From a virus, in IMG/VR virus record IMGVR_UViG_3300033155_000498, positions 1 to 64,000 of that record: DNA of 64,000 nt, one strand, 5' to 3'. The notes under the pieces are model-generated. The model had not been told where the DNA came from. It saw only the letters and a program-made list of their open reading frames with translations, and made no database searches. Positions 1 through 50,664 of this stretch are shown here, in pieces. The stretch's first letter is position 1; every line of letters begins with the position of its first letter. The translations under genes and the position numbers were made by a program.

Positions 1-1041
1 GCTGAATTTGCGTGTATCTGTAGCATACGCTTTGTCATCAGCAGTGGGACTCATTCGATATGACCATTTACCGCTTTTATTCTTCTTTGTAAGAGTTCTA
101 TAGTCCGGGGTAACGGTCTCGTGATATATCTGCCCATTGGCAGTAGCAAGGAACGGGCTTGCACAATCAAAACTAATTGTAAAATCAGGATTATGTGTGC
201 GTCGAACTGCGCGTTGCAATGCTGTTAGTAATACCGCCCATTCTAGTTTACTTGTTCCTAAGAAATGCATCCAATCTTGTTTGCCTTCTTCAAGTAAACC
301 ATCATGTATCAATGTTATTACTCTTTTAATAGCTAGGTGTGGATCTGCCATGTTAGCACCACCCATTGCCCAGCCTTTAAAATACTTTTCGTGTTTGGTC
401 GGATCGCTGTACTCTTTCATTTCTTCGTACCAACGATCTGCTTCACTATGGTTACCACCTTGTAACACGTTAAGAAACTTTGCATCGTTTGTTGCATGTT
501 TCATAAAGTATTCGTGATTATACCTTGTTGCTTGTACTGCATCATCGTAACTATGTATGCCTGACTTCTTAGCAGACTCTGGATTAGTAAATGTCCACGT
601 CGGAATATCAAGTGTCATGCTATAATCACTAATGCTGCATAACCATTTTAATACAGTGCTTCTGTACTTCTCAGCTTTAGGACAATTAGGATTGTTCCAT
701 TCGCCTTCCCATACGCCCTTTGCAATTTGGAATCCGCCGGAGTCAGCTAACAATAATGTATCGCTGCTACGCTTACGGATCATATCTTCTTTAGCTACTT
801 CCTTGGTTAGATCAAGGTTGGCGTGGCCCGCCGAGTAAAGTGCCTGGTTGTACTTAAATAGACCCTTTTGGTTATTAAAGAAGTTCATCATCTCCATGTC
901 TGGAATGCCGGCTGGCATACGACTTGGTGGTACGTAGTTCGGATCGGATTGTTGCTTGCCTATATACGTGCTGTAGAAGCTACTAATGGCTGGCAGAAAT
1001 ACTGCATAATCTTTTTGTTCGTTAGTTAAGTCTTTTTTCAT
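1..1041 (-). CDS. tRNA-guanine transglycosylase/DpdA-like base-exchange enzyme (3' end runs off the window)
   Basis: Not in the ORF track. Manual translation from ATG 1041 (MKKDLTNEQKDYAVFLPAIS...) shows TGT-fold motifs LADSGGFQ, MTLDIP, FLNVLQGG, WMHFLGT and ISFDCASP. ATGA overlap with the upstream gene. Confidence 0.8.
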   Translation of the reverse strand, partial: MKKDLTNEQKDYAVFLPAISSFYSTYIGKQQSDPNYVPPSRMPAGIPDMEMMNFFNNQKGLFKYNQALYSAGHANLDLTKEVAKEDMIRKRSSDTLLLADSGGFQIAKGVWEGEWNNPNCPKAEKYRSTVLKWLCSISDYSMTLDIPTWTFTNPESAKKSGIHSYDDAVQATRYNHEYFMKHATNDAKFLNVLQGGNHSEADRWYEEMKEYSDPTKHEKYFKGWAMGGANMADPHLAIKRVITLIHDGLLEEGKQDWMHFLGTSKLEWAVLLTALQRAVRRTHNPDFTISFDCASPFLATANGQIYHETVTPDYRTLTKKNKSGKWSYRMSPTADDKAYATDTRKFS

Positions 1042-1292
1042 GATTTATATTTTAACATAAACATTGTTTTATTGCTATCTTTATGGAACTTTACTCCTTG
1101 AATGCCGTAGTAACCGTTGTCTACGATAAGTTTACACCCAAACTCTTCTTCAAACTGCTGTGTTGTCTTTCCGCCTGCGGTATACGCCCTGAGTGCCTTT
1201 GCTAGTAACGCCATGGATAACTCATCGCCTTCTAATATAAACGGGTAAAGGTGTTCATCTACTACATCTGCTGTTAGTTGTACTTGTTCCAT
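1038..1292 (-). CDS. hypothetical protein (C-terminal FMLKY motif)
   Basis: ORF track; translationally coupled to its neighbours. Confidence 0.7.
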   Translation of the reverse strand: MEQVQLTADVVDEHLYPFILEGDELSMALLAKALRAYTAGGKTTQQFEEEFGCKLIVDNGYYGIQGVKFHKDSNKTMFMLKYKS

Positions 1293-1495
1293 TATTCACA
1301 GTTCCATGTTAATCTTGTTGCTGTTTCTGCTTCTTCGGTATACACTTCCACAAACATTAATAACGATCCTACAATGTCTCTAGGCCTAGACTCGTATGGA
1401 ATTAGTGCGTATTTGTATTCGTTAAGTTCTAACCATGCTACTACCTGTTCTAAGTCAACTTTCATGTAGTTTATTTTTATACGTCTTTTATCCAT
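1292..1495 (-). CDS. hypothetical protein
   Basis: Likely start MDKRRI at 1495 (TAATG overlap). Confidence 0.6.
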   Translation of the reverse strand: MDKRRIKINYMKVDLEQVVAWLELNEYKYALIPYESRPRDIVGSLLMFVEVYTEEAETATRLTWNCE

Positions 1496-1686
1496 TATGT
1501 TTCGGCTAGTTTGTGATACGTTGACATAGCGCAACAATGATCAAACGCTGCCTGTAGTTCCGGAAACGCTTTCATTACACTAACTCTGTCATACATTCTA
1601 GCATTTGGAATACTATCCAATACACAATCGTACTCGCGCCATGCTTCTTGTTCGTACTCGGTTAGTGTTCGGTCGCCGCTTATCAT
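1495..1686 (-). CDS. hypothetical protein
   Basis: ATGA-coupled small ORF. Confidence 0.6.
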   Translation of the reverse strand: MISGDRTLTEYEQEAWREYDCVLDSIPNARMYDRVSVMKAFPELQAAFDHCCAMSTYHKLAET

Positions 1687-1976
1687 TTGCGTTTTATGAA
1701 TTGTCTTACTTCGCCTGTTTTCTTAGCTGGCTTCTTTCGTTTAAGCCGACGTTTGAACACGCGGCCAAACATGCCCGCGAACATAGCTTTAATTTCATAC
1801 CATGAGGCCCACCATCCGCCCATTTGATATGCACTACTATACATTATCAATCCGCCAACTGCGACAGTTAATAGTGAACTGATGTGACCGTGCCATAGTA
1901 CATTGTAGGATCCTATTCCTAGGAAAATTAAACCTAGTAGAAACCAAATCTTAGTAAGTTTGCTTGGATGAATCAT
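1683..1976 (-). CDS. small membrane protein (2 TM, basic tail)
   Basis: Two hydrophobic stretches and a K/R-rich C-terminus. Confidence 0.65.
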   Translation of the reverse strand: MIHPSKLTKIWFLLGLIFLGIGSYNVLWHGHISSLLTVAVGGLIMYSSAYQMGGWWASWYEIKAMFAGMFGRVFKRRLKRKKPAKKTGEVRQFIKRK

Positions 1977-2236
1977 TATTCTTTATCCTTTAGTTCTGAG
2001 CTTTTAATTAATTCTACCTGCATACCGTGTGGTATTACGATAATCTTAATGTGTTTATCTTCAAATGCATCGTGGAACACTCTTGAAACATTCTCTATGA
2101 ATTTCCCAAGGGCTGCACTTGGCATATTTGCCGATCCCTCAGGTAATGTTACCAATAATGCATCGCCGTCATCAACATTTATTTTTACTACGTCATCTAG
2201 TGTAACGTTAAATTCGTCTGTCATATTGTTTTCCAT
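1976..2236 (-). CDS. hypothetical protein
   Basis: ORF track; coupled. Confidence 0.65.
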   Translation of the reverse strand: MENNMTDEFNVTLDDVVKINVDDGDALLVTLPEGSANMPSAALGKFIENVSRVFHDAFEDKHIKIIVIPHGMQVELIKSSELKDKE

Positions 2237-2403
2237 TTTAGTTTAAATGCTACTTGTGCTTCTTCGTCCGGGACTTTCCATGCGCTAATAGGTACGAATA
2301 ATGTAGGATGAGTTACTGACTGTCCCATTAACGTACATTTGTAATTATTAGCTTGCATCCAAGCTGTAACTTCGAGCGCATTAGCAGATGTCTTAAAAAT
2401 CAT
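2221..2403 (-). CDS. hypothetical protein (C-terminal AFKLKW motif)
   Basis: Likely start MIFK at 2403. Confidence 0.55.
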   Translation of the reverse strand: MIFKTSANALEVTAWMQANNYKCTLMGQSVTHPTLFVPISAWKVPDEEAQVAFKLKWKTI

Positions 2404-2407
2404 TATA

Positions 2408-2746
2408 CTACGAAGCGCCGCCTGTTCCAACTATTAAATTCTTTAACAGGTAATACCGTTCCCATGCATCTTTTAAGGATTCGTTGTCGGTTTCTACGCC
2501 TTCAACAACTTCGAAGTAGTGCCGTTCCCAAGCTGGCTTTCTATCTATTTGTGCTTGTTGTTTCTCGGTGAGATTGCGGATTGTTTTAATCTGTTCCCAT
2601 GCATCGTTTAACGCAGGATTATCCCGTCGAATCTTTTCCATCGCGCTCAATGAGTTTTCAATCATCTCAGCTTCAATCTTAGCTGCAATTTCTTCTTCAG
2701 TTAACCCTTCTAACGAATCTATGTCTGGTATCACTTGTTGATTCAT
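2408..2746 (-). CDS. PAL-AW-YQ motif family protein (two motif copies)
   Basis: IRRDNPALNDAWEQIK and NESLKDAWERYY; start 2746 via TAATG overlap. Confidence 0.7.
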   Translation of the reverse strand: MNQQVIPDIDSLEGLTEEEIAAKIEAEMIENSLSAMEKIRRDNPALNDAWEQIKTIRNLTEKQQAQIDRKPAWERHYFEVVEGVETDNESLKDAWERYYLLKNLIVGTGGAS

Positions 2747-2961
2747 TATTTCCTTGCTAACTTTAATGTAATTTGATATTTCTCCCATGCGTCTTGGACT
2801 GCTGGGTGTGTTAAGCGCATTATTTCTTCTGCTTGGTCAGCCACTTCTCGCACTAACAACTTATTTTCAAGATCATCAATCTTTTGAGAGTCACCCGCTT
2901 CTACTTCGTACATTTCTTCAATCATATCTGTATCGATTTCTTTATACGTATAAACGTTCAC
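2746..2961 (-). CDS. PAL-AW-YQ motif family protein
   Basis: MRLTHPAVQDAWEKYQITLKL; GTG start via GTGA overlap. Confidence 0.65.
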   Translation of the reverse strand: MNVYTYKEIDTDMIEEMYEVEAGDSQKIDDLENKLLVREVADQAEEIMRLTHPAVQDAWEKYQITLKLARK

Positions 2962-3194
2962 GGCTTCACCATCTTTAAAACAGTTTGATATTTGTCCCAT
3001 GCATCTTTCAATGCTGGGTATGATAATCTCAATAACTCTGCTTCTTTCTGTTCTAATTTTGCTGATAGTATTTCATTGCGGAGTTTAGCATTTTCTATCT
3101 TGTTTAGATCAGCTGCTGGGTCGAGTCGAGCCTTAGCTTCTTCTAACTCTTTATGCATTCGCTGTTCAAGTACCCATGGATCTGTAGTGCTCAT
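2958..3194 (-). CDS. PAL-AW-YQ motif family protein
   Basis: LRLSYPALKDAWDKYQTVLKM; ATGA overlap. Confidence 0.7.
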   Translation of the reverse strand: MSTTDPWVLEQRMHKELEEAKARLDPAADLNKIENAKLRNEILSAKLEQKEAELLRLSYPALKDAWDKYQTVLKMVKP

Positions 3195-3394
3195 TCTACT
3201 AACCTTAATATAGTTTGATATTTGTCCCAAGCATCCAGCAATGCTGGATTTTCATCTCGCAATTTTGCCTGGCCCGACGATTTCATCTTGTATTCTAAAA
3301 GCTCAAGTTTAAGAGAGTGTATTTTATTGTCACGCTTATCAATGATATCGCCATCTACATCGTATTCCATACCATCTGCTAACCATTCACTCAT
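3191..3394 (-). CDS. PAL-AW-YQ motif family protein
   Basis: LRDENPALLDAWDKYQTILRL. Confidence 0.7.
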   Translation of the reverse strand: MSEWLADGMEYDVDGDIIDKRDNKIHSLKLELLEYKMKSSGQAKLRDENPALLDAWDKYQTILRLVE

Positions 3395-3600
3395 TTTGCT
3401 GACAACCTTTTAGTTGCTTGAAACTTTTCATACAAATCTTGCAATGCAGGGTTTTGTCTGCGTAACTCTGCATCCCATTCCAGATGTTGTTCAAGTGTAT
3501 CAATACGTTCTTCAAGCATTTTAAAAACACTTTCGTAAGAGTCACCTGCTGAAACACCTGAAAGTCTATTAGTAGCCATATGAGTAACAGTGTTAGCCAC
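3391..3600 (-). CDS. PAL-AW-YQ motif family protein
   Basis: LRRQNPALQDLYEKFQATKRL. Confidence 0.65.
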   Translation of the reverse strand: MANTVTHMATNRLSGVSAGDSYESVFKMLEERIDTLEQHLEWDAELRRQNPALQDLYEKFQATKRLSAK

Positions 3601-3907
3601 TATTTTCTAGTTCACCTAGAGCGTCGTCTGATTTCTTAACTAATGTGTACACCATTTGATACTGATCATACAACTCCTGCAATGCAGGATTGTTCTTGCG
3701 AAGTACTGCTTCGGTATCTTGCTGAAATGTCATCGCTTCGAGTTGTAACTTTAGATTATCAACTGTTAATTTTAATTCCGTTAGTTCATACCCGGGTTGT
3801 ATATCAATTACTAGCTTGTTGCCACCCTGGTGATTGTTTAAGGTTCCGTCGTACTCTTGTCGATGCTCAACATTAATAAACTGCTGGTCTCCCCTAATAT
3901 CAATCAT
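3593..3907 (-). CDS. PAL-AW-YQ motif family protein
   Basis: LRKNNPALQELYDQYQMVYTL; real start MIDIRG at 3907. Confidence 0.65.
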   Translation of the reverse strand: MIDIRGDQQFINVEHRQEYDGTLNNHQGGNKLVIDIQPGYELTELKLTVDNLKLQLEAMTFQQDTEAVLRKNNPALQELYDQYQMVYTLVKKSDDALGELENSG

Positions 3908-3908
3908 G

Positions 3909-4631
3909 TTACTTACTCTGCGCTGGCAGAATGTATGTGTATTCTGCAATACCGCTATCAACAATAATTTGTGCTGCGCCGTCATCACTGATGCGTAGTA
4001 CCTTATCGCCCGGAAGGCCAAGAATGTTAATAACGTGTGCAATAGGCCAGTGCCAGCTACGTTTTAATTCGCCTTCAACACCAGCTGCAAATATAAAGTT
4101 ACCAGCATGTGTGCTGTGGTCGCCAAAGTAAAATACAAGGTTGCTGTCTTCTGTCTTTGCAATAAAAGTACTTTCGTTTGGGTTAGCCATTGCTTGAAAC
4201 TTCAAACGCTGAATGCTTGCAACTGTTGGTTCAAGCTCAACGTTCCATGACACACCTTTAAACTTAACGGTTTTAAGTTGGTCTTCAACAATCTCTTTAC
4301 TCATAAACCTGTAGTCGTTTGTAAAGTCGCCTGCTGCGTTCTTGAAGTTCATGCTAACTGGACCTTTAACTGCATCCTGTTTAACAGTAATAGTAGCATT
4401 TGTTAAGTACTCGTCAATGCCAAGAATCGTTTTAAGCGTTGACATGTTTGGCATACCAAACGTTCCCTTAAACTCTGAAATTGGATTATGAAATGTTGCC
4501 GTAATAACTACGCTATGATCTTCTGCTAGACCCTCAACGGTTGTTTCGGTGTCTGTACCATTAACCTTAACTAGGTCAATACAACCCAAATCGTGTGTAT
4601 GGGTAATTAAATCTTTTAAATTATCAATCAT
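3909..4631 (-). CDS. DNA polymerase sliding clamp (gp45/PCNA-like)
   Basis: 240 aa; clamp-like pattern ending in YTYILPA; near the DNA polymerase. Confidence 0.65.
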   Translation of the reverse strand: MIDNLKDLITHTHDLGCIDLVKVNGTDTETTVEGLAEDHSVVITATFHNPISEFKGTFGMPNMSTLKTILGIDEYLTNATITVKQDAVKGPVSMNFKNAAGDFTNDYRFMSKEIVEDQLKTVKFKGVSWNVELEPTVASIQRLKFQAMANPNESTFIAKTEDSNLVFYFGDHSTHAGNFIFAAGVEGELKRSWHWPIAHVINILGLPGDKVLRISDDGAAQIIVDSGIAEYTYILPAQSK

Positions 4632-4654: not shown

Positions 4655-4683
4655 ATTATACTTGAATTAGTAAATTTAATCAA
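4655..4683 (-). promoter_or_regulatory. sigma70-type promoter
   Basis: TTGATT-17bp-TATAAT upstream of the clamp gene. Confidence 0.6.
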
Positions 4684-5696
4684 GGCTTTTGATTAAATTT
4701 TTTATTATACTCGATAGATCTGGTTGGGTCGTATTCGGGTTTTACTATCGGGTCACGTTTTATCTCCCCTACTGTCTTACCGCTTTTTATTGATGTAAGC
4801 TCGCCGGGCTTCTTAAGTGCAAGCCAAGAAACACTATCGGTTGCTACTGCATCAATAATTTTAAAATCATAACATTCGCATATTTTCTCTAGCATAGCGC
4901 CGGGTGTGAAACAATAGTTGCCACTTTCAAAAAGTCTCGCTCCAGCAGGTAAATCACAATTGTTGTATGTAAACATTAAATGACCACCTGGTTTCAATAA
5001 CTCAAATGATTCAGTTAAATATTGCTTAATAACGTCCAGTGGTTTAAAGTGCATAAAGTGTTCCATAACTATTAATCCCACTTGCCCTGAGGGAATCGAA
5101 TTAGTAAGAAACTGTTCTTTATTCTCATCGATCGCTTTAAAACGAATTTCGTTATACAGCCCATCTTCTAAATTCTCTTTAAGCCAGTTAGTAATATCAC
5201 ACTGTTCTGCAACATATAAAATGCTTGTGGCTTTCATAGCGTCGAAGAACCTAAGTGAATTGGGTCTAACGTATAATGTTGGATACTGCCATGACGAGAA
5301 TTTACGTATTAACGTATTGAACTTATGGGCAGCTACACTGTCATCAGCAAATTGATCTAGGTCACGACACTTCTGTGCTTGCTCCTGATTAAACCAATTC
5401 TTACTCTCGTCATACATATCATAACTATCGCCGAGCGGCTCTTTAGCTAACTCTTGCATTAAGTCATGCGCGGTTGCTTGCGTTTCGTTGATATGTTCGA
5501 CTAATGATGTAACATCGTTAAGGATATCGTCAATGTCGTTACTAACTAGATCGGCTTCCACTAAGTGTTCACCAGCACCAAATTTATCGATGTTGTCTCT
5601 AATTTGCGAAAGTTTATTGCTAAGTTCTAATAGCTCTGGAGTAACATTCCATGCATCAATAGTTCGCTTTTGTAATAGTAGATCGCTTAATTTCAT
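4680..5696 (-). CDS. class I SAM-dependent methyltransferase-like protein with N-terminal coiled coil
   Basis: QYLTESFELLKPGGHLMFTYNN motif; start MKLSD at 5696. Confidence 0.6.
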   Translation of the reverse strand: MKLSDLLLQKRTIDAWNVTPELLELSNKLSQIRDNIDKFGAGEHLVEADLVSNDIDDILNDVTSLVEHINETQATAHDLMQELAKEPLGDSYDMYDESKNWFNQEQAQKCRDLDQFADDSVAAHKFNTLIRKFSSWQYPTLYVRPNSLRFFDAMKATSILYVAEQCDITNWLKENLEDGLYNEIRFKAIDENKEQFLTNSIPSGQVGLIVMEHFMHFKPLDVIKQYLTESFELLKPGGHLMFTYNNCDLPAGARLFESGNYCFTPGAMLEKICECYDFKIIDAVATDSVSWLALKKPGELTSIKSGKTVGEIKRDPIVKPEYDPTRSIEYNKKFNQKP

Positions 5697-5697
5697 T

Positions 5698-8454
5698 TTA
5701 AAACTCGAATAAGTTACTAAATGTACTTGTTGTGTCTGTATGTGCTCCAAGGTCCCAATTCAACACGCCAAGTAGGTTATCAACCTTTTGATCAACAACC
5801 GTTGCTTCCATTAATGCATCATCAAATGGTAAGTCTTTAAACCATTGCGGAATCTGTGTTTCATCAGTAGGCCGCGCTACGCTTGTTATATTAAGTGGAT
5901 TGTCTTTTAATTTACATATGATTGCTTTGCTACCATCTATAATAGACATTGTAAAGTTATCGTTGTGCATCTTACGTAGATTATTATAATTAAATCCTGC
6001 TCGTACATGCCCTGGTAACCTAGCACTCTCACCTTTCTTCCGTGCGTGGATTTCCTGTGCTGTATACATAGTTAAATTATTAATACGCTTGGGTGATCCT
6101 TTCTCCCATGATGGCAATGCACTAAACTCTTTCTTAAAGGCAAGTATTTGTTCGATTACTTTTTCCTTACCAAGTTCGTTTAGCGTTGAGTCAAGTATCT
6201 CCTTAAGGAACTCCTGAACAACCGGTGGAGTATCACTACGTTTTAAGTCTAATCCCATTGCTTTAACTTTACCGGGTTTGTCGTCAACATCAAGACGTTC
6301 GCCTTCATTGTCGATTACCATAAGTGCATAACGTTTCTTAGTAATGAACAGCCCGATATTTGCAACTGCTTCTCTTCCACACTTAATAAGGTCGCCGTAA
6401 TGTTTCGGACAACCAAATGCCTTGTGCATAAAGCCTGGAAAACTCTTATTAGCTTCAACAGCCAGGCTATCGTATAACGCAATAGCAATGTCTGCATCCC
6501 ACTCCTGCTCGCCTGCTTCAACTGCATCTTTAACCACAGGCCATGCTGTAAAGTAGGCAGAGTCAGTATCGCCATATATAATACATTCGCCGACGTGGTT
6601 GTATTCGCCGGTTAGACATTGGTTGACGTGTGCATCCATATGTTGTGCGATAGCTCTGCCCGTTAATGTAGTTGACTGCCCGATCCGTTTATCAAAGAAA
6701 CGACAGTGCTGATTCAGAATAGCGCCGTACAGTGAGTTCAAGTTGATCTTTTTAACAAGCTGTCGCTTGTCCCAGTACTCAATGTCAGCTGTTAACCCTG
6801 CTGCAATTGCTTGTTTAAGTTTCTTCTGCATTTCCTTACGTTCAGCATACCAACGTTTAAGTAAGCCTGGAATGATGCCCGGGTTCTTCAAACTAAAGAT
6901 AGTACCGTTTGCAGTTACTACCCATGGTTGATCACTGTTAAAGATTAAATCGTATGCGTCCTTGGCAGATATCGTAGAGTCGCCTGCTATCTTAGTAAAC
7001 GATGACAAGTTACTAGATGTTTTTGGTTCCCAGTCAATTGTAACTTGGAAGTCATCGCGTCGATCCATAACTGCCGTGTATTCTAAACTACCAAACAAGC
7101 CTTCCCAGGCCGCTGCGAAACTGCAACCCTTCTTCTTTTTAGTTTTACCACTTGGCAGAGTTATTATCTTGTCTGCCATCTTATCAGCAATGTACTTGTC
7201 TGTTTCAATTGGGCGTAACTGGCCAACAATAGTTTCTGGTGCCATGTTACATGCTTGAATAGCAGACGGATACAGACTGTTAATATCAACAGAACCGATC
7301 CATTTGTGTAATCCTTTCTTCGGGTATGCTACGTATGCACCTGCTGCCTGTGTATGTTCATCTGGACCGTAACGTACCTTGTCCGGAACAACGAAACCTT
7401 TTTCGTGTGCTTCGTTAATAATTGCTTGTTCTGTAACTGCAACCGCTCCCATTGTCTTAGGCAATAGTACAGTGTTTTCGTGTGCAACTGAGTTAGCTAA
7501 GTCAATAAACTTCAGCTTCTGATCTAGCTTATGTAGTAGCAGTGTATCTTGTTGGTTGTACTCAATGAACTTCGGAAAGTCATTGTTGTACAAATCATCA
7601 AGCGATCCATCGTATGCAACTTTGCGTTCGTTTAGCTCGTACTCACCAATTGCATCCAAGCTGTACGAATGCATTTCGTGATATGTGTACTTGCGGTACA
7701 ACTGCATGTAATCTAGATGTATACGACCAATTAAATCGTATGTAATGTTCTCTGCGCCAAATCGTTCAAACGTGCGCTTCTTAGGAAGTTTATTCCATAA
7801 GCAGAAACGGCGCGTATCATCTTTAGATAACGTTCGTGTAATACGATTAACCATATATGGAATATCGTAACCTTCGCTGTTCCAACCACTTAGTACATCT
7901 GCATCTTCAATAATGTCAAGAAAGTCTTTAAACATTTCCTTTTCATCTGTATACAGAATTGTGTTATCGTACCGACTGCAAATTTCCTTTGCTTCTTGTG
8001 GCGACATGTGTCGCGGTGCGATAACTTGTGTAACTAGTGTATTGGACCAATTTAGATAAGTTGAAATTGCCGTTACTTTGTTAAAGGGATCAGTCACAGG
8101 ACTAAACCCTTTTTCCTTGTCGAAGTCTACTTCAATATCAAAGAATGCCGTTTGAAGTACAGGAAATTCTGCTCCCTTGTAGTTTCTTTCTAAACAACGT
8201 GCAATGGGTTGGAAGTCGCTTTCATACAACTTCGAACCCATGTGCATACGTTTTTCTTTTTGATATTCTTTGTGTGAGTTTGATGTAAACTTACCAACCG
8301 GTTTGTCGTACACCGTGCTATGCTTCCCGCGTCGGTCATCATAATAAAATGTGTACTCCGCAGGATACTCAACAAAGACACGCTTGCCATGTAATCGTTC
8401 TACAACATAAACGGTGTCTTTATCTTTGTCGTAGCGGGCGTCGACAAAACTCAT
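5698..8454 (-). CDS. family B DNA polymerase
   Basis: ExoI FFDIEV, ExoII GWNSEGYD, DINSLYPS, KINLNSLYG, YGDTDS, KKRY. Confidence 0.97.
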   Translation of the reverse strand: MSFVDARYDKDKDTVYVVERLHGKRVFVEYPAEYTFYYDDRRGKHSTVYDKPVGKFTSNSHKEYQKEKRMHMGSKLYESDFQPIARCLERNYKGAEFPVLQTAFFDIEVDFDKEKGFSPVTDPFNKVTAISTYLNWSNTLVTQVIAPRHMSPQEAKEICSRYDNTILYTDEKEMFKDFLDIIEDADVLSGWNSEGYDIPYMVNRITRTLSKDDTRRFCLWNKLPKKRTFERFGAENITYDLIGRIHLDYMQLYRKYTYHEMHSYSLDAIGEYELNERKVAYDGSLDDLYNNDFPKFIEYNQQDTLLLHKLDQKLKFIDLANSVAHENTVLLPKTMGAVAVTEQAIINEAHEKGFVVPDKVRYGPDEHTQAAGAYVAYPKKGLHKWIGSVDINSLYPSAIQACNMAPETIVGQLRPIETDKYIADKMADKIITLPSGKTKKKKGCSFAAAWEGLFGSLEYTAVMDRRDDFQVTIDWEPKTSSNLSSFTKIAGDSTISAKDAYDLIFNSDQPWVVTANGTIFSLKNPGIIPGLLKRWYAERKEMQKKLKQAIAAGLTADIEYWDKRQLVKKINLNSLYGAILNQHCRFFDKRIGQSTTLTGRAIAQHMDAHVNQCLTGEYNHVGECIIYGDTDSAYFTAWPVVKDAVEAGEQEWDADIAIALYDSLAVEANKSFPGFMHKAFGCPKHYGDLIKCGREAVANIGLFITKKRYALMVIDNEGERLDVDDKPGKVKAMGLDLKRSDTPPVVQEFLKEILDSTLNELGKEKVIEQILAFKKEFSALPSWEKGSPKRINNLTMYTAQEIHARKKGESARLPGHVRAGFNYNNLRKMHNDNFTMSIIDGSKAIICKLKDNPLNITSVARPTDETQIPQWFKDLPFDDALMEATVVDQKVDNLLGVLNWDLGAHTDTTSTFSNLFEF

Positions 8455-49349: not shown

Positions 49350-49994
49350 TTATCTTCCTTTCCAACCCTTAAGGGCGGCAAATGTTAGTAATTGAACATG
49401 CTCATCGTTTGGCATTGTAAACGTTTCCGTTATACTGTCAAACTTAAATTCTTTAGATTTATCGGTTAGGTCATCGCCTGTGATTGCCCAAACATTATGA
49501 TTGGTCCAGCGTGTAATACGACCGATGCCTAATCTTTTACCTGGCATAACACCAATAACCCAATCACCTTTTTGAAGTTCCTGCATGTACTTGTTAACAG
49601 GATTCGTAACTTCTACTTTCTCGTGCGTTTCAGTATTGCGAATGTATTCAGTTTGGTGCTGGCCAACAAGTGCTTTTGTATACGAAGCGTTAATACGACC
49701 TTTTTGTTTGCGTCCATCCACTTTATATATAAAAGTGCCACCATATGTTATGATCTGGTTTGCTTTATGGTACTTAGTTTCATCATCGTACGTGTCAACT
49801 TCTATATCTACTACTCTAGCAATAGTGCCTTTAGTTGCAGTAGACGTGATTTCAATAAAAGTATCTTCTGGAACGACAATGTCGCCAACTTTAATAAGTG
49901 TATCCACGAAGCCTTTTTTGCCCTGCCAATCTGTAGTCTCTCTTGTTCTAGCTTCAACACCAGAACAACTTTTTAAAATAGTACTTAATGACAT
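49350..49994 (-). CDS. hypothetical protein
   Basis: Start MSLST via TAATG overlap. Confidence 0.6.
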   Translation of the reverse strand: MSLSTILKSCSGVEARTRETTDWQGKKGFVDTLIKVGDIVVPEDTFIEITSTATKGTIARVVDIEVDTYDDETKYHKANQIITYGGTFIYKVDGRKQKGRINASYTKALVGQHQTEYIRNTETHEKVEVTNPVNKYMQELQKGDWVIGVMPGKRLGIGRITRWTNHNVWAITGDDLTDKSKEFKFDSITETFTMPNDEHVQLLTFAALKGWKGR

Positions 49995-50236
49995 TATGTT
50001 TTCCTTGTTAATCCTAATACTGTTTGGTATTTGTCCCACGCATCTTTAAGAGTAGGGTTTCTATCGCGGAGACGAAGTTCTTCAAGTTCTAGATGTATTG
50101 CATCTTTTTCAGCATCCGCTACCTTCTTCCTTAATTTAAGAATTGTTTGGCCAATATCATTAAGGGCGCCGCCTGTGATAGTATACGTCTTTTCGTCGTA
50201 TACTCTTTTTGGATCAAAAGTGGAGTCCTTAGGCAT
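49994..50236 (-). CDS. PAL-AW-YQ motif family protein (distal paralog)
   Basis: LRDRNPTLKDAWDKYQTVLGL. Confidence 0.7.
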   Translation of the reverse strand: MPKDSTFDPKRVYDEKTYTITGGALNDIGQTILKLRKKVADAEKDAIHLELEELRLRDRNPTLKDAWDKYQTVLGLTRKT

Positions 50237-50664
50237 TAGTCTTTAACCGCCTTCAAGAAAGCGTATGCCTTGTGATACTTCGTAATACGATCGTGATCCT
50301 TAGGACGGAGACCCTTAAGACGATGTGCATCACTGTTATGACGTAAGTCAGCCATCTTAATTGCACGGGCAATTGGACTAACTGAAATCCGCATAATGTA
50401 ATCATCGTAACTTTCACCCTTTCGATGTGTAAGTAGAACAATTATATTAACCGTATGCGGATTAAAGCCTGTTTCGATTAGCTTCTCTGCTGTCCAGGTT
50501 GTGTCTTCAATTAGGTCGTGTAGCACCGCGGCAATCATTGCTTCAACGCCAAGATGCCTTACCTTATACATCACATGTAAGCAATGCATAATATATGGAG
50601 TGCCACCCTTATCAAACACATTTGTGAATGCTGTGGCTGCGATTGCGATTGCTTTATCTAACAT
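50236..50664 (-). CDS. HD-domain small alarmone hydrolase-like protein
   Basis: PYIMHCLHV, AAVLHDLIEDT, IKMADLRHN. Confidence 0.85.
   Translation of the reverse strand: MLDKAIAIAATAFTNVFDKGGTPYIMHCLHVMYKVRHLGVEAMIAAVLHDLIEDTTWTAEKLIETGFNPHTVNIIVLLTHRKGESYDDYIMRISVSPIARAIKMADLRHNSDAHRLKGLRPKDHDRITKYHKAYAFLKAVKD

Follow-up and report, generated by a model that had tools for sequence, protein, structure and literature searches.

The DNA analyzed here, referred to as the window, is the 64,000-nucleotide stretch spanning positions 1 to 64,000 of IMG/VR virus record IMGVR_UViG_3300033155_000498, and it carries a tandem array of six small genes, g1 to g6, whose products share a 27-residue module. 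All six are on the minus strand, and their coordinates include the stop codon. The first gene of the array, g1 (3593–3907), codes for 104 amino acids (aa) with the module, NNPALQELYDQYQ, near its C-terminus. It is followed by g2 (3391–3600, 69 aa, module QNPALQDLYEKFQ), which has a GTG start, g3 (3191–3394, 67 aa, module ENPALLDAWDKYQ), g4 (2958–3194, 78 aa, module SYPALKDAWDKYQ), g5 (2746–2961, 71 aa, module THPAVQDAWEKYQ), and g6 (2408–2746, 112 aa), which contains two module copies, DNPALNDAWEQIK and NESLKDAWERYY. The g1 ATG is positioned 1 nt past the stop codon of an upstream 240-aa gene; g1 and g2 overlap by 8 nt at the g2 GTG (an alternative g2 ATG is present at 3579), the g2/g3 and g3/g4 junctions are ATGA overlaps, and g4/g5 and g5/g6 overlap as GTGA and TAATG, respectively. 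A dispersed seventh paralog, g7 (49994–50236 including stop, minus strand, 80 aa), is TAATG-coupled on both sides: upstream lies an HD-domain gene, and downstream a gene for 214 aa. The product of the upstream gene (50236–50664, minus strand) is 142 aa long and has an HD_4 domain (Pfam E 6e-8), which places it with the (p)ppGpp-hydrolase-like HD proteins. A first-pass annotation of this DNA had described six coupled genes of ~67–112 aa with a common C-terminal motif and a seventh paralog at the g7 position, and both observations hold: all six array genes carry the module, their junctions either overlap or are spaced by 1 nt, and a hidden Markov model (HMM) of the module also matches g7. N-termini beginning MGQISNYIKVS, proposed by an open reading frame (ORF) finder, were rejected as starts because they arise from reading the conserved motif DNA in its +1 frame.

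The module has the consensus E-E-x-L-R-x-x-(N/H/Y)-P-A-L-x-D-A-W-x-K-Y-Q-x-x-L-x-L, and an alignment of all seven proteins contains R-x-x-[NYH]-P-[AT]-[LV]-x-[DE]-[AL]-[WY]-[DE]-[KQ]-[YFI]-[QK]-x-x-x-x-[LM] without exception. Its specificity was assessed by searching the 27-aa motif HMM against all stop-to-stop frames, in six frames, of the whole 78,393-bp contig. Only these seven ORFs match, with E-values of 1e-15 to 8e-19, and the next best match has an E-value of 1.2. Among 202 members of the wider family, the Arg is present in 99%, the Pro in 98%, Trp or Tyr in 98%, the Tyr in 87%, the Gln in 83%, and the last Leu in 92%. Chance similarity and generic coiled-coil composition, the latter a concern raised in the first-pass annotation, are both rejected, as the HMM is specific to the seven ORFs and the Arg, Pro and Trp/Tyr positions are near-fixed. 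The second copy in g6 scores weakly against the HMM (independent E-value 0.046), yet it is retained in 22 g6-like sequences, in which L91, A94, W95, Y98, Y99, K102 and L104 are invariant; the earlier count of two copies in one gene therefore stands.

The remainder of each protein, here termed the head, is of a different character. With the module removed, no significant pairwise similarity is detected among the seven heads (best E 0.038 at permissive settings), in keeping with the earlier description of unrelated N-termini. Five of the seven heads are clearly acidic, with net charges of -6 to -11, and the other two carry -3 and, for g7, -1. In 124 of the 202 members, no more than 5 aa separate the end of the module from the C-terminus, and some members, including P0055 and P0060, carry it in the middle of the protein or N-terminally.

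Conservation of this kind might instead reside in the nucleic acid, as a folded RNA, as a signal for re-initiation at the following gene, or as a recombination site repeated at the ends of genes. Within the array, the motif is located 30–60 nt ahead of the next start codon, and the NPAL codons of g1 and g3 form 7-bp palindromes, both of which would fit such an element. The codons of 24 distinct motif copies, taken from the window and related contigs, contradict it. Synonymous codons are used freely at the conserved residues, with six for Arg, four for Ala, three for Pro, and both TTR and CTN for Leu; third positions have an entropy of 1–2 bits and are nearly free, and first and second positions are nearly fixed. 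The palindromes are not found in the remaining motif copies, and a signal tied to the following start codon does not account for modules that are internal or N-terminal in their proteins. The nucleic-acid explanation is thus rejected, and we regard it as almost certainly wrong. Since all synonymous codons are in use at the conserved residues, selection acts on the amino acid sequence, and the module is under protein-level purifying selection. The two perfect 7-bp palindromes, in the NPAL(L/Q)(D/E) codons of g3 (3233–3249) and g1 (3675–3689), are terminator-like on the plus strand; because the other motif copies lack them, they are treated as a by-product, probably of codon choice.

The seven paralogs belong to a large protein family that is confined to viruses and has as yet no name; its members are small and all-helical. 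Scored against 1.84 billion metagenomic cluster representatives (clusters at 50% identity), a profile built from the seven modules matches 689 at E ≤ 1e-3. Nearly all of the best 150 of these 689 representatives are 40–135 aa in length; the smallest members have 38 and 49 aa, and those of 38–51 aa consist of little beyond the module. The single long member among the matches, which is possibly chimeric, is a FecR-domain protein that ends in the module, and searches for longer members found no fused or longer forms, although this is weak evidence owing to candidate crowding. ESM Atlas neighbours of the family are unnamed clusters that are 100% viral, and no cellular relatives were found in 185,579 bacterial and archaeal genomes (one per species), in which 27 pattern matches were obtained and none is related. 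All seven window proteins fall within a working definition of the family as small helical viral proteins containing L-R-x-x-[NHY]-P-[ATS]-[LV]-x-[DE]-[AL]-[WY]-[ED]-[KQ]-[YFI]-[QK]-x-x-x-x-L.

The family matches nothing described and merits its own profile and name. For the seven window proteins, no Pfam match exceeds the gathering threshold or has E < 0.02, and ten longer relatives have none; at E ≤ 1 over 150 members, the commonest Pfam family is a coiled-coil model, reached by 8 of the 150. PHROGs gives no significant profile match, the best being phrog_24500 (6 of 150 members, E at least 0.005), NCBIfam matches are at chance level and far under the curated cut-offs, and the best E-value in PDB profile searches is 0.1. 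Foldseek searches of PDB and BFVD return generic helical matches only, none at E ≤ 0.001 against PDB, and a full-text literature search did not find the motif strings. The first-pass annotation had recognized no described family, and Pfam, PHROGs, NCBIfam, PDB sequence and profile searches, Foldseek and the full-text search all bear this out; in particular, no characterized domain in Pfam, PHROGs or NCBIfam is matched, and no PDB sequence or profile match is significant. Megablast of the array region against 50,697 GenBank phages returns no match, and tblastn against cultured phages gives none for g7, even at E ≤ 10, and chance matches only for g6.

Comparisons with related genomes reveal how the array evolves. 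The window contig, estimated by CheckV to be 22% complete, belongs to a jumbo phage of ~345 kb. Its closest whole genome, IMGVR_UViG_3300032254_000001 (G001), is 344,483 bp with direct terminal repeats, and the DNA polymerases (PolB) of the two are 88% identical; the window PolB is also 40–47% identical to those of jumbo phages Phosso, Vibrio phage 2.275.O and the 121Q/GAP32 group. Module loci in IMG/VR number 66. Counting motif matches per genome, as had been proposed earlier, yields 1–14 copies: G001 has 8, the 250-kb G002 has 14 in two arrays, the 364-kb G003 has 3, and five further large contigs (195–293 kb) have 1–4 each. The array order from g1 to g6 is kept in relatives, with variation among the middle members; g1 orthologs are always the first gene behind the clamp, and g5 has no ortholog in G001. 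Relative to their G001 orthologs, g1 to g4 are 26–50% identical in the heads and 57–86% in the module, compared with 88% for PolB and the clamp, which supports the original description of a constant module with variable heads. The best conserved paralog is g6, with 73% identity overall and 79% in the head.

Two cultured phages contain divergent members, both annotated as hypothetical. These are gp166 (...KEHPILNDAWNRYMMALRL...) of the Sinorhizobium meliloti phage Phosso and gp319 (...EKYPALKSAYDEYEVILSI...) of the Pseudomonas aeruginosa phage PA5oct, the latter situated between clamp/DpdA-like genes and QueE; gp319 is not mentioned in the PA5oct omics paper (PMC7318152). Elsewhere in PA5oct (locus L070, 218999–221821), a Hef-like homing endonuclease gene interrupts the polB homolog, and the clamp homolog is annotated as a 'structural protein' from virion mass spectrometry. 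Two other arrangements were observed. First, over 20 contigs (L005, L007, L012, L038, L059, L061 and others), one of which is a complete 364-kb genome, encode a recurrent pair of larger module proteins of ~136 and ~160 aa (...NPTVKDAWDKFQMVAGL... and ...HPAVRDAYEQFQTVCNL...) behind an ATP-dependent DNA ligase gene. Second, in three large viral contigs of IMG/VR (L009, L036 and L055), full-length EF-G genes (~690 aa, with all five EF-G Pfam domains) are located within 1–3 kb of a module gene.

The 240-aa gene directly upstream of the array (3909–4631, minus strand) probably codes for a gp45/PCNA-like sliding clamp. Its product has no Pfam match and falls in phrog_12062 (unknown function); the assignment follows from homologs annotated as PCNA or sliding clamp by two depositors and from ESM Atlas neighbour clusters named PCNA or sliding clamp, with scores of 0.94–0.98. 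Identity to the window clamp is 88% in G001, 80% in G006, 77% in G002 and 59% in G003. A perfect sigma-70 consensus promoter, TTGACA-17-TATAAT (8770–8742, minus strand), lies ~290 nt upstream of the polB start and is a candidate promoter for a polB-clamp-array operon. It is directly preceded by a terminator-like hairpin (8807–8786, minus strand), an arrangement resembling an operon boundary with a strong host-type early promoter. From the promoter to the array, a 5-bp stem within polB (7111–7098) is the sole minus-strand terminator-like site, and none is found at the array or just downstream of it. Phage late-type TAA[AG]TA-N-ATG boxes are absent from the array region, from upstream of every array gene, and from the vicinity of g7. 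Given the consensus promoter, the lack of a terminator at the array and the lack of late boxes, the array looks like part of this operon, for which these sequence features suggest early or middle timing. Between polB and the clamp, a further gene (4680–5750, minus strand) codes for a 356-aa protein with a weak Methyltransf_23 match (E 0.0025, below cut-off); at 64% identity to its G001 counterpart, it is less conserved than its neighbours.

On the other side of the array is a TGT/DpdA-like gene (1–1041). It has no Pfam match, its product contains DSGGFQ, a motif of TGT enzymes, and 7-deazaguanine genes adjoin its homologs in both PA5oct and Vibrio phage 2.275.O. The first-pass annotation had placed the array directly downstream of the clamp and upstream of this gene. 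That description holds only in part: the gene ahead of the array is a likely clamp, and the TGT/DpdA-like gene is 1.4 kb away, with six small ORFs between. These six (1038–2430, minus strand) are tightly packed, code for 63–97 aa, and have no module and no Pfam or PHROG match; one of them (1683–1976, minus strand) resembles a membrane protein.

The position of the array raises the possibility that the proteins are sliding-clamp adaptors, whose C-terminal module would attach to the phage clamp and deliver different heads to replication forks or late promoters. In five contigs (the window, G001, G002, G006 and L021) the array comes immediately after the clamp gene, and in the window it appears to share an operon with polB. 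In T4, gp43, gp33 and gp55 bind gp45 through their C-terminal tails, and the present proteins share with these, and with PIP-box and beta-clamp motifs, a conserved C-terminal element, small size and, in this lineage, adjacency to the clamp. However, g7, the second G002 array and the G003 copies are all far from the clamp, and most other loci have other neighbours. No family member was found in the cultured Vibrio phage 2.275.O, Atu_ph07 or GAP32, although each has a homologous clamp. Known clamp-binding motifs such as the PIP box, QL[SD]LF and the T4 tails are short extended peptides of 6–10 aa with aromatic pairs, whereas the module is a predicted folded helical element of 27 residues with a different pattern. 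The clamp, one of the partners suggested by the first-pass annotation, is thus favored by synteny in one lineage only, and a clamp-adaptor function appears quite improbable.

Predicted structures indicate what the module may look like. The AlphaFold2 model of g7, built with 150 aligned relatives, has a predicted local distance difference test (pLDDT) score of 85.5 and comprises a helix at residues 22–59, a break at N60-P61, and a second helix at 61–79. The module accordingly corresponds to the end of a long helix (E-E-x-L-R), a break at (N/H/Y)-P, and a 19-residue amphipathic helix (A-L-x-D-A-W-x-K-Y-Q-x-V-L-x-L). Plotted as a helical wheel, this second helix has its hydrophobic columns at 60–240 degrees, a face of ~180 degrees. 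Conservation extends beyond this face, as the information content is 2.4 bits or more in each of module columns 22–33 and the polar positions are fixed too. Because the conserved surface exceeds what would be needed for packing on the protein's own long helix, we infer that the module probably lies buried, either within an oligomer or by contact with a partner.

We propose that the module is a protein-interaction unit that carries diversifying heads, a reading to which we give an even chance. The module would either dock all paralogs onto one conserved partner or allow the paralogs to assemble mutually, and the fast-evolving, mostly acidic heads would give each paralog its own specificity. An adaptor binding a common partner had been suggested before, and the constant module and variable heads agree with that part of the suggestion; a docking tag alone does not, because members of 38–50 aa are nearly headless and the module itself must carry function.

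The near-headless members also fit a different explanation, in which the module is itself the effector, a short inhibitory or modulatory peptide acting on a single host machine of universal conservation, for example RNA polymerase, ribosomes or an AAA+ protease, and the heads are little more than spacers or solubility tags. In agreement with this, all of the first three turns of the second helix are conserved on all faces, including polar positions 26, 27, 30, 31 and 33, and the family is distributed among phages of very different hosts and habitats, Phosso and PA5oct included, and was not found in the cellular genomes scanned. It is hard to see how one shared job would explain 6–14 copies per genome, each with its own ortholog and in a kept order, or the conservation of g6 over its whole length, head included. 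We consider the effector explanation rather unlikely.

Several observations weigh against an interaction unit with diversifying heads. Neighbours of family genes at 25 diverse loci are heterogeneous (PolB, ligase, EF-G, ClpP/X, GTP cyclohydrolase I), and no recurrent partner family is present among the 129 flanking ORFs of these loci. The conservation statistics are drawn from sequences selected with the motif HMM and are hence partly circular. Fast evolution of the heads could reflect weakly constrained spacers. Finally, the AlphaFold2 model of g6 is all-helical with a pLDDT of 59.7, too low to show how its two modules pack.

Should the interaction unit be correct, it is conceivable that it serves large lytic phages as a dedicated code for docking or assembly. 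In such a combinatorial adaptor system, acidic-head paralogs, up to 14 per genome and diversifying, would plug into a single conserved hub by way of one invariant helix, with each redirecting or protecting the hub differently, possibly in counter-defence. Candidates for such a hub are the phage replisome or clamp and, on the host side, a universal machine. This more specific proposal, which would have no described counterpart, we consider unlikely and put forward as speculation.

Most of the gene content of jumbo phages codes for small proteins of unknown function, and many host-takeover and counter-defence functions have come to light among such proteins. The present family is recognized by one sharp motif and is often multicopy, and a module profile would annotate hundreds of 'hypothetical' genes together. 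The divergent members in cultured PA5oct and Phosso make its function testable at the bench. Should all paralogs prove to bind a single partner, it would be a hub targeted or exploited by large phages in several different ways.

The family can be compared with several known proteins and folds. The weak matches to phrog_24500 (PHROGs v4, best E 0.005) align exactly on the module; as they are not significant and this PHROG is without annotation, it is not accepted as the same family. Hepatitis delta antigen (1a92), the H-NS-like TurB (5b52) and GapR (6jyk) resemble the module proteins in having one long helix and then a shorter one. VIA-align superimposes them with Z-scores of 5.1–5.2 and root-mean-square deviations of 2.3–3.8 over 50–61 aa at 8–22% identity, Z-scores that by the tool's own note are far under the meaningful level for helical proteins; Foldseek does not find this likeness, and the best VIA-align score, Z 6.1, is to generic coiled coils.

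A closer local resemblance is to the junction between helix B and helix A of TPR/HAT repeats, which are separated by a Pro-containing turn in the pattern P-x-x-x-x-[AL]-W-x-x-Y. The module has equal spacing, with Pro, four residues, Ala-Trp, two residues and Tyr, its preceding helix ends in L-R/E in a TPR/HAT-like manner, and the best PDB sequence matches, which are non-significant, are helical-repeat mitoribosomal proteins. Unlike TPR/HAT proteins, none of 17 singly scanned family proteins has a TPR/HAT Pfam match at E ≤ 1, and over the 150 members TPR-type families were reached by two each at the same threshold. Moreover, unlike TPR/HAT solenoids, each protein here has one hairpin (two in g6).

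The general design, in which tandem small phage paralogs join a constant segment to variable bodies, is already known, for example from the T4 internal proteins. IPI, IPII and IPIII of T4 are small paralogs from a variable tandem locus that share a capsid-targeting sequence, an N-terminal segment of ~10 aa that is cleaved by the prohead protease, and they are expressed late. The present proteins are not internal proteins of the T4 type, as their constant part is C-terminal and no TAA[AG]TA late box precedes the array genes. In contrast to the T4 segment, this constant part is a 27-aa helical module, usually at the C-terminus and with no sign of cleavage, and the array apparently resides in a replication operon. 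What the two systems have in common is the joining of a short constant segment to unrelated, fast-evolving bodies.

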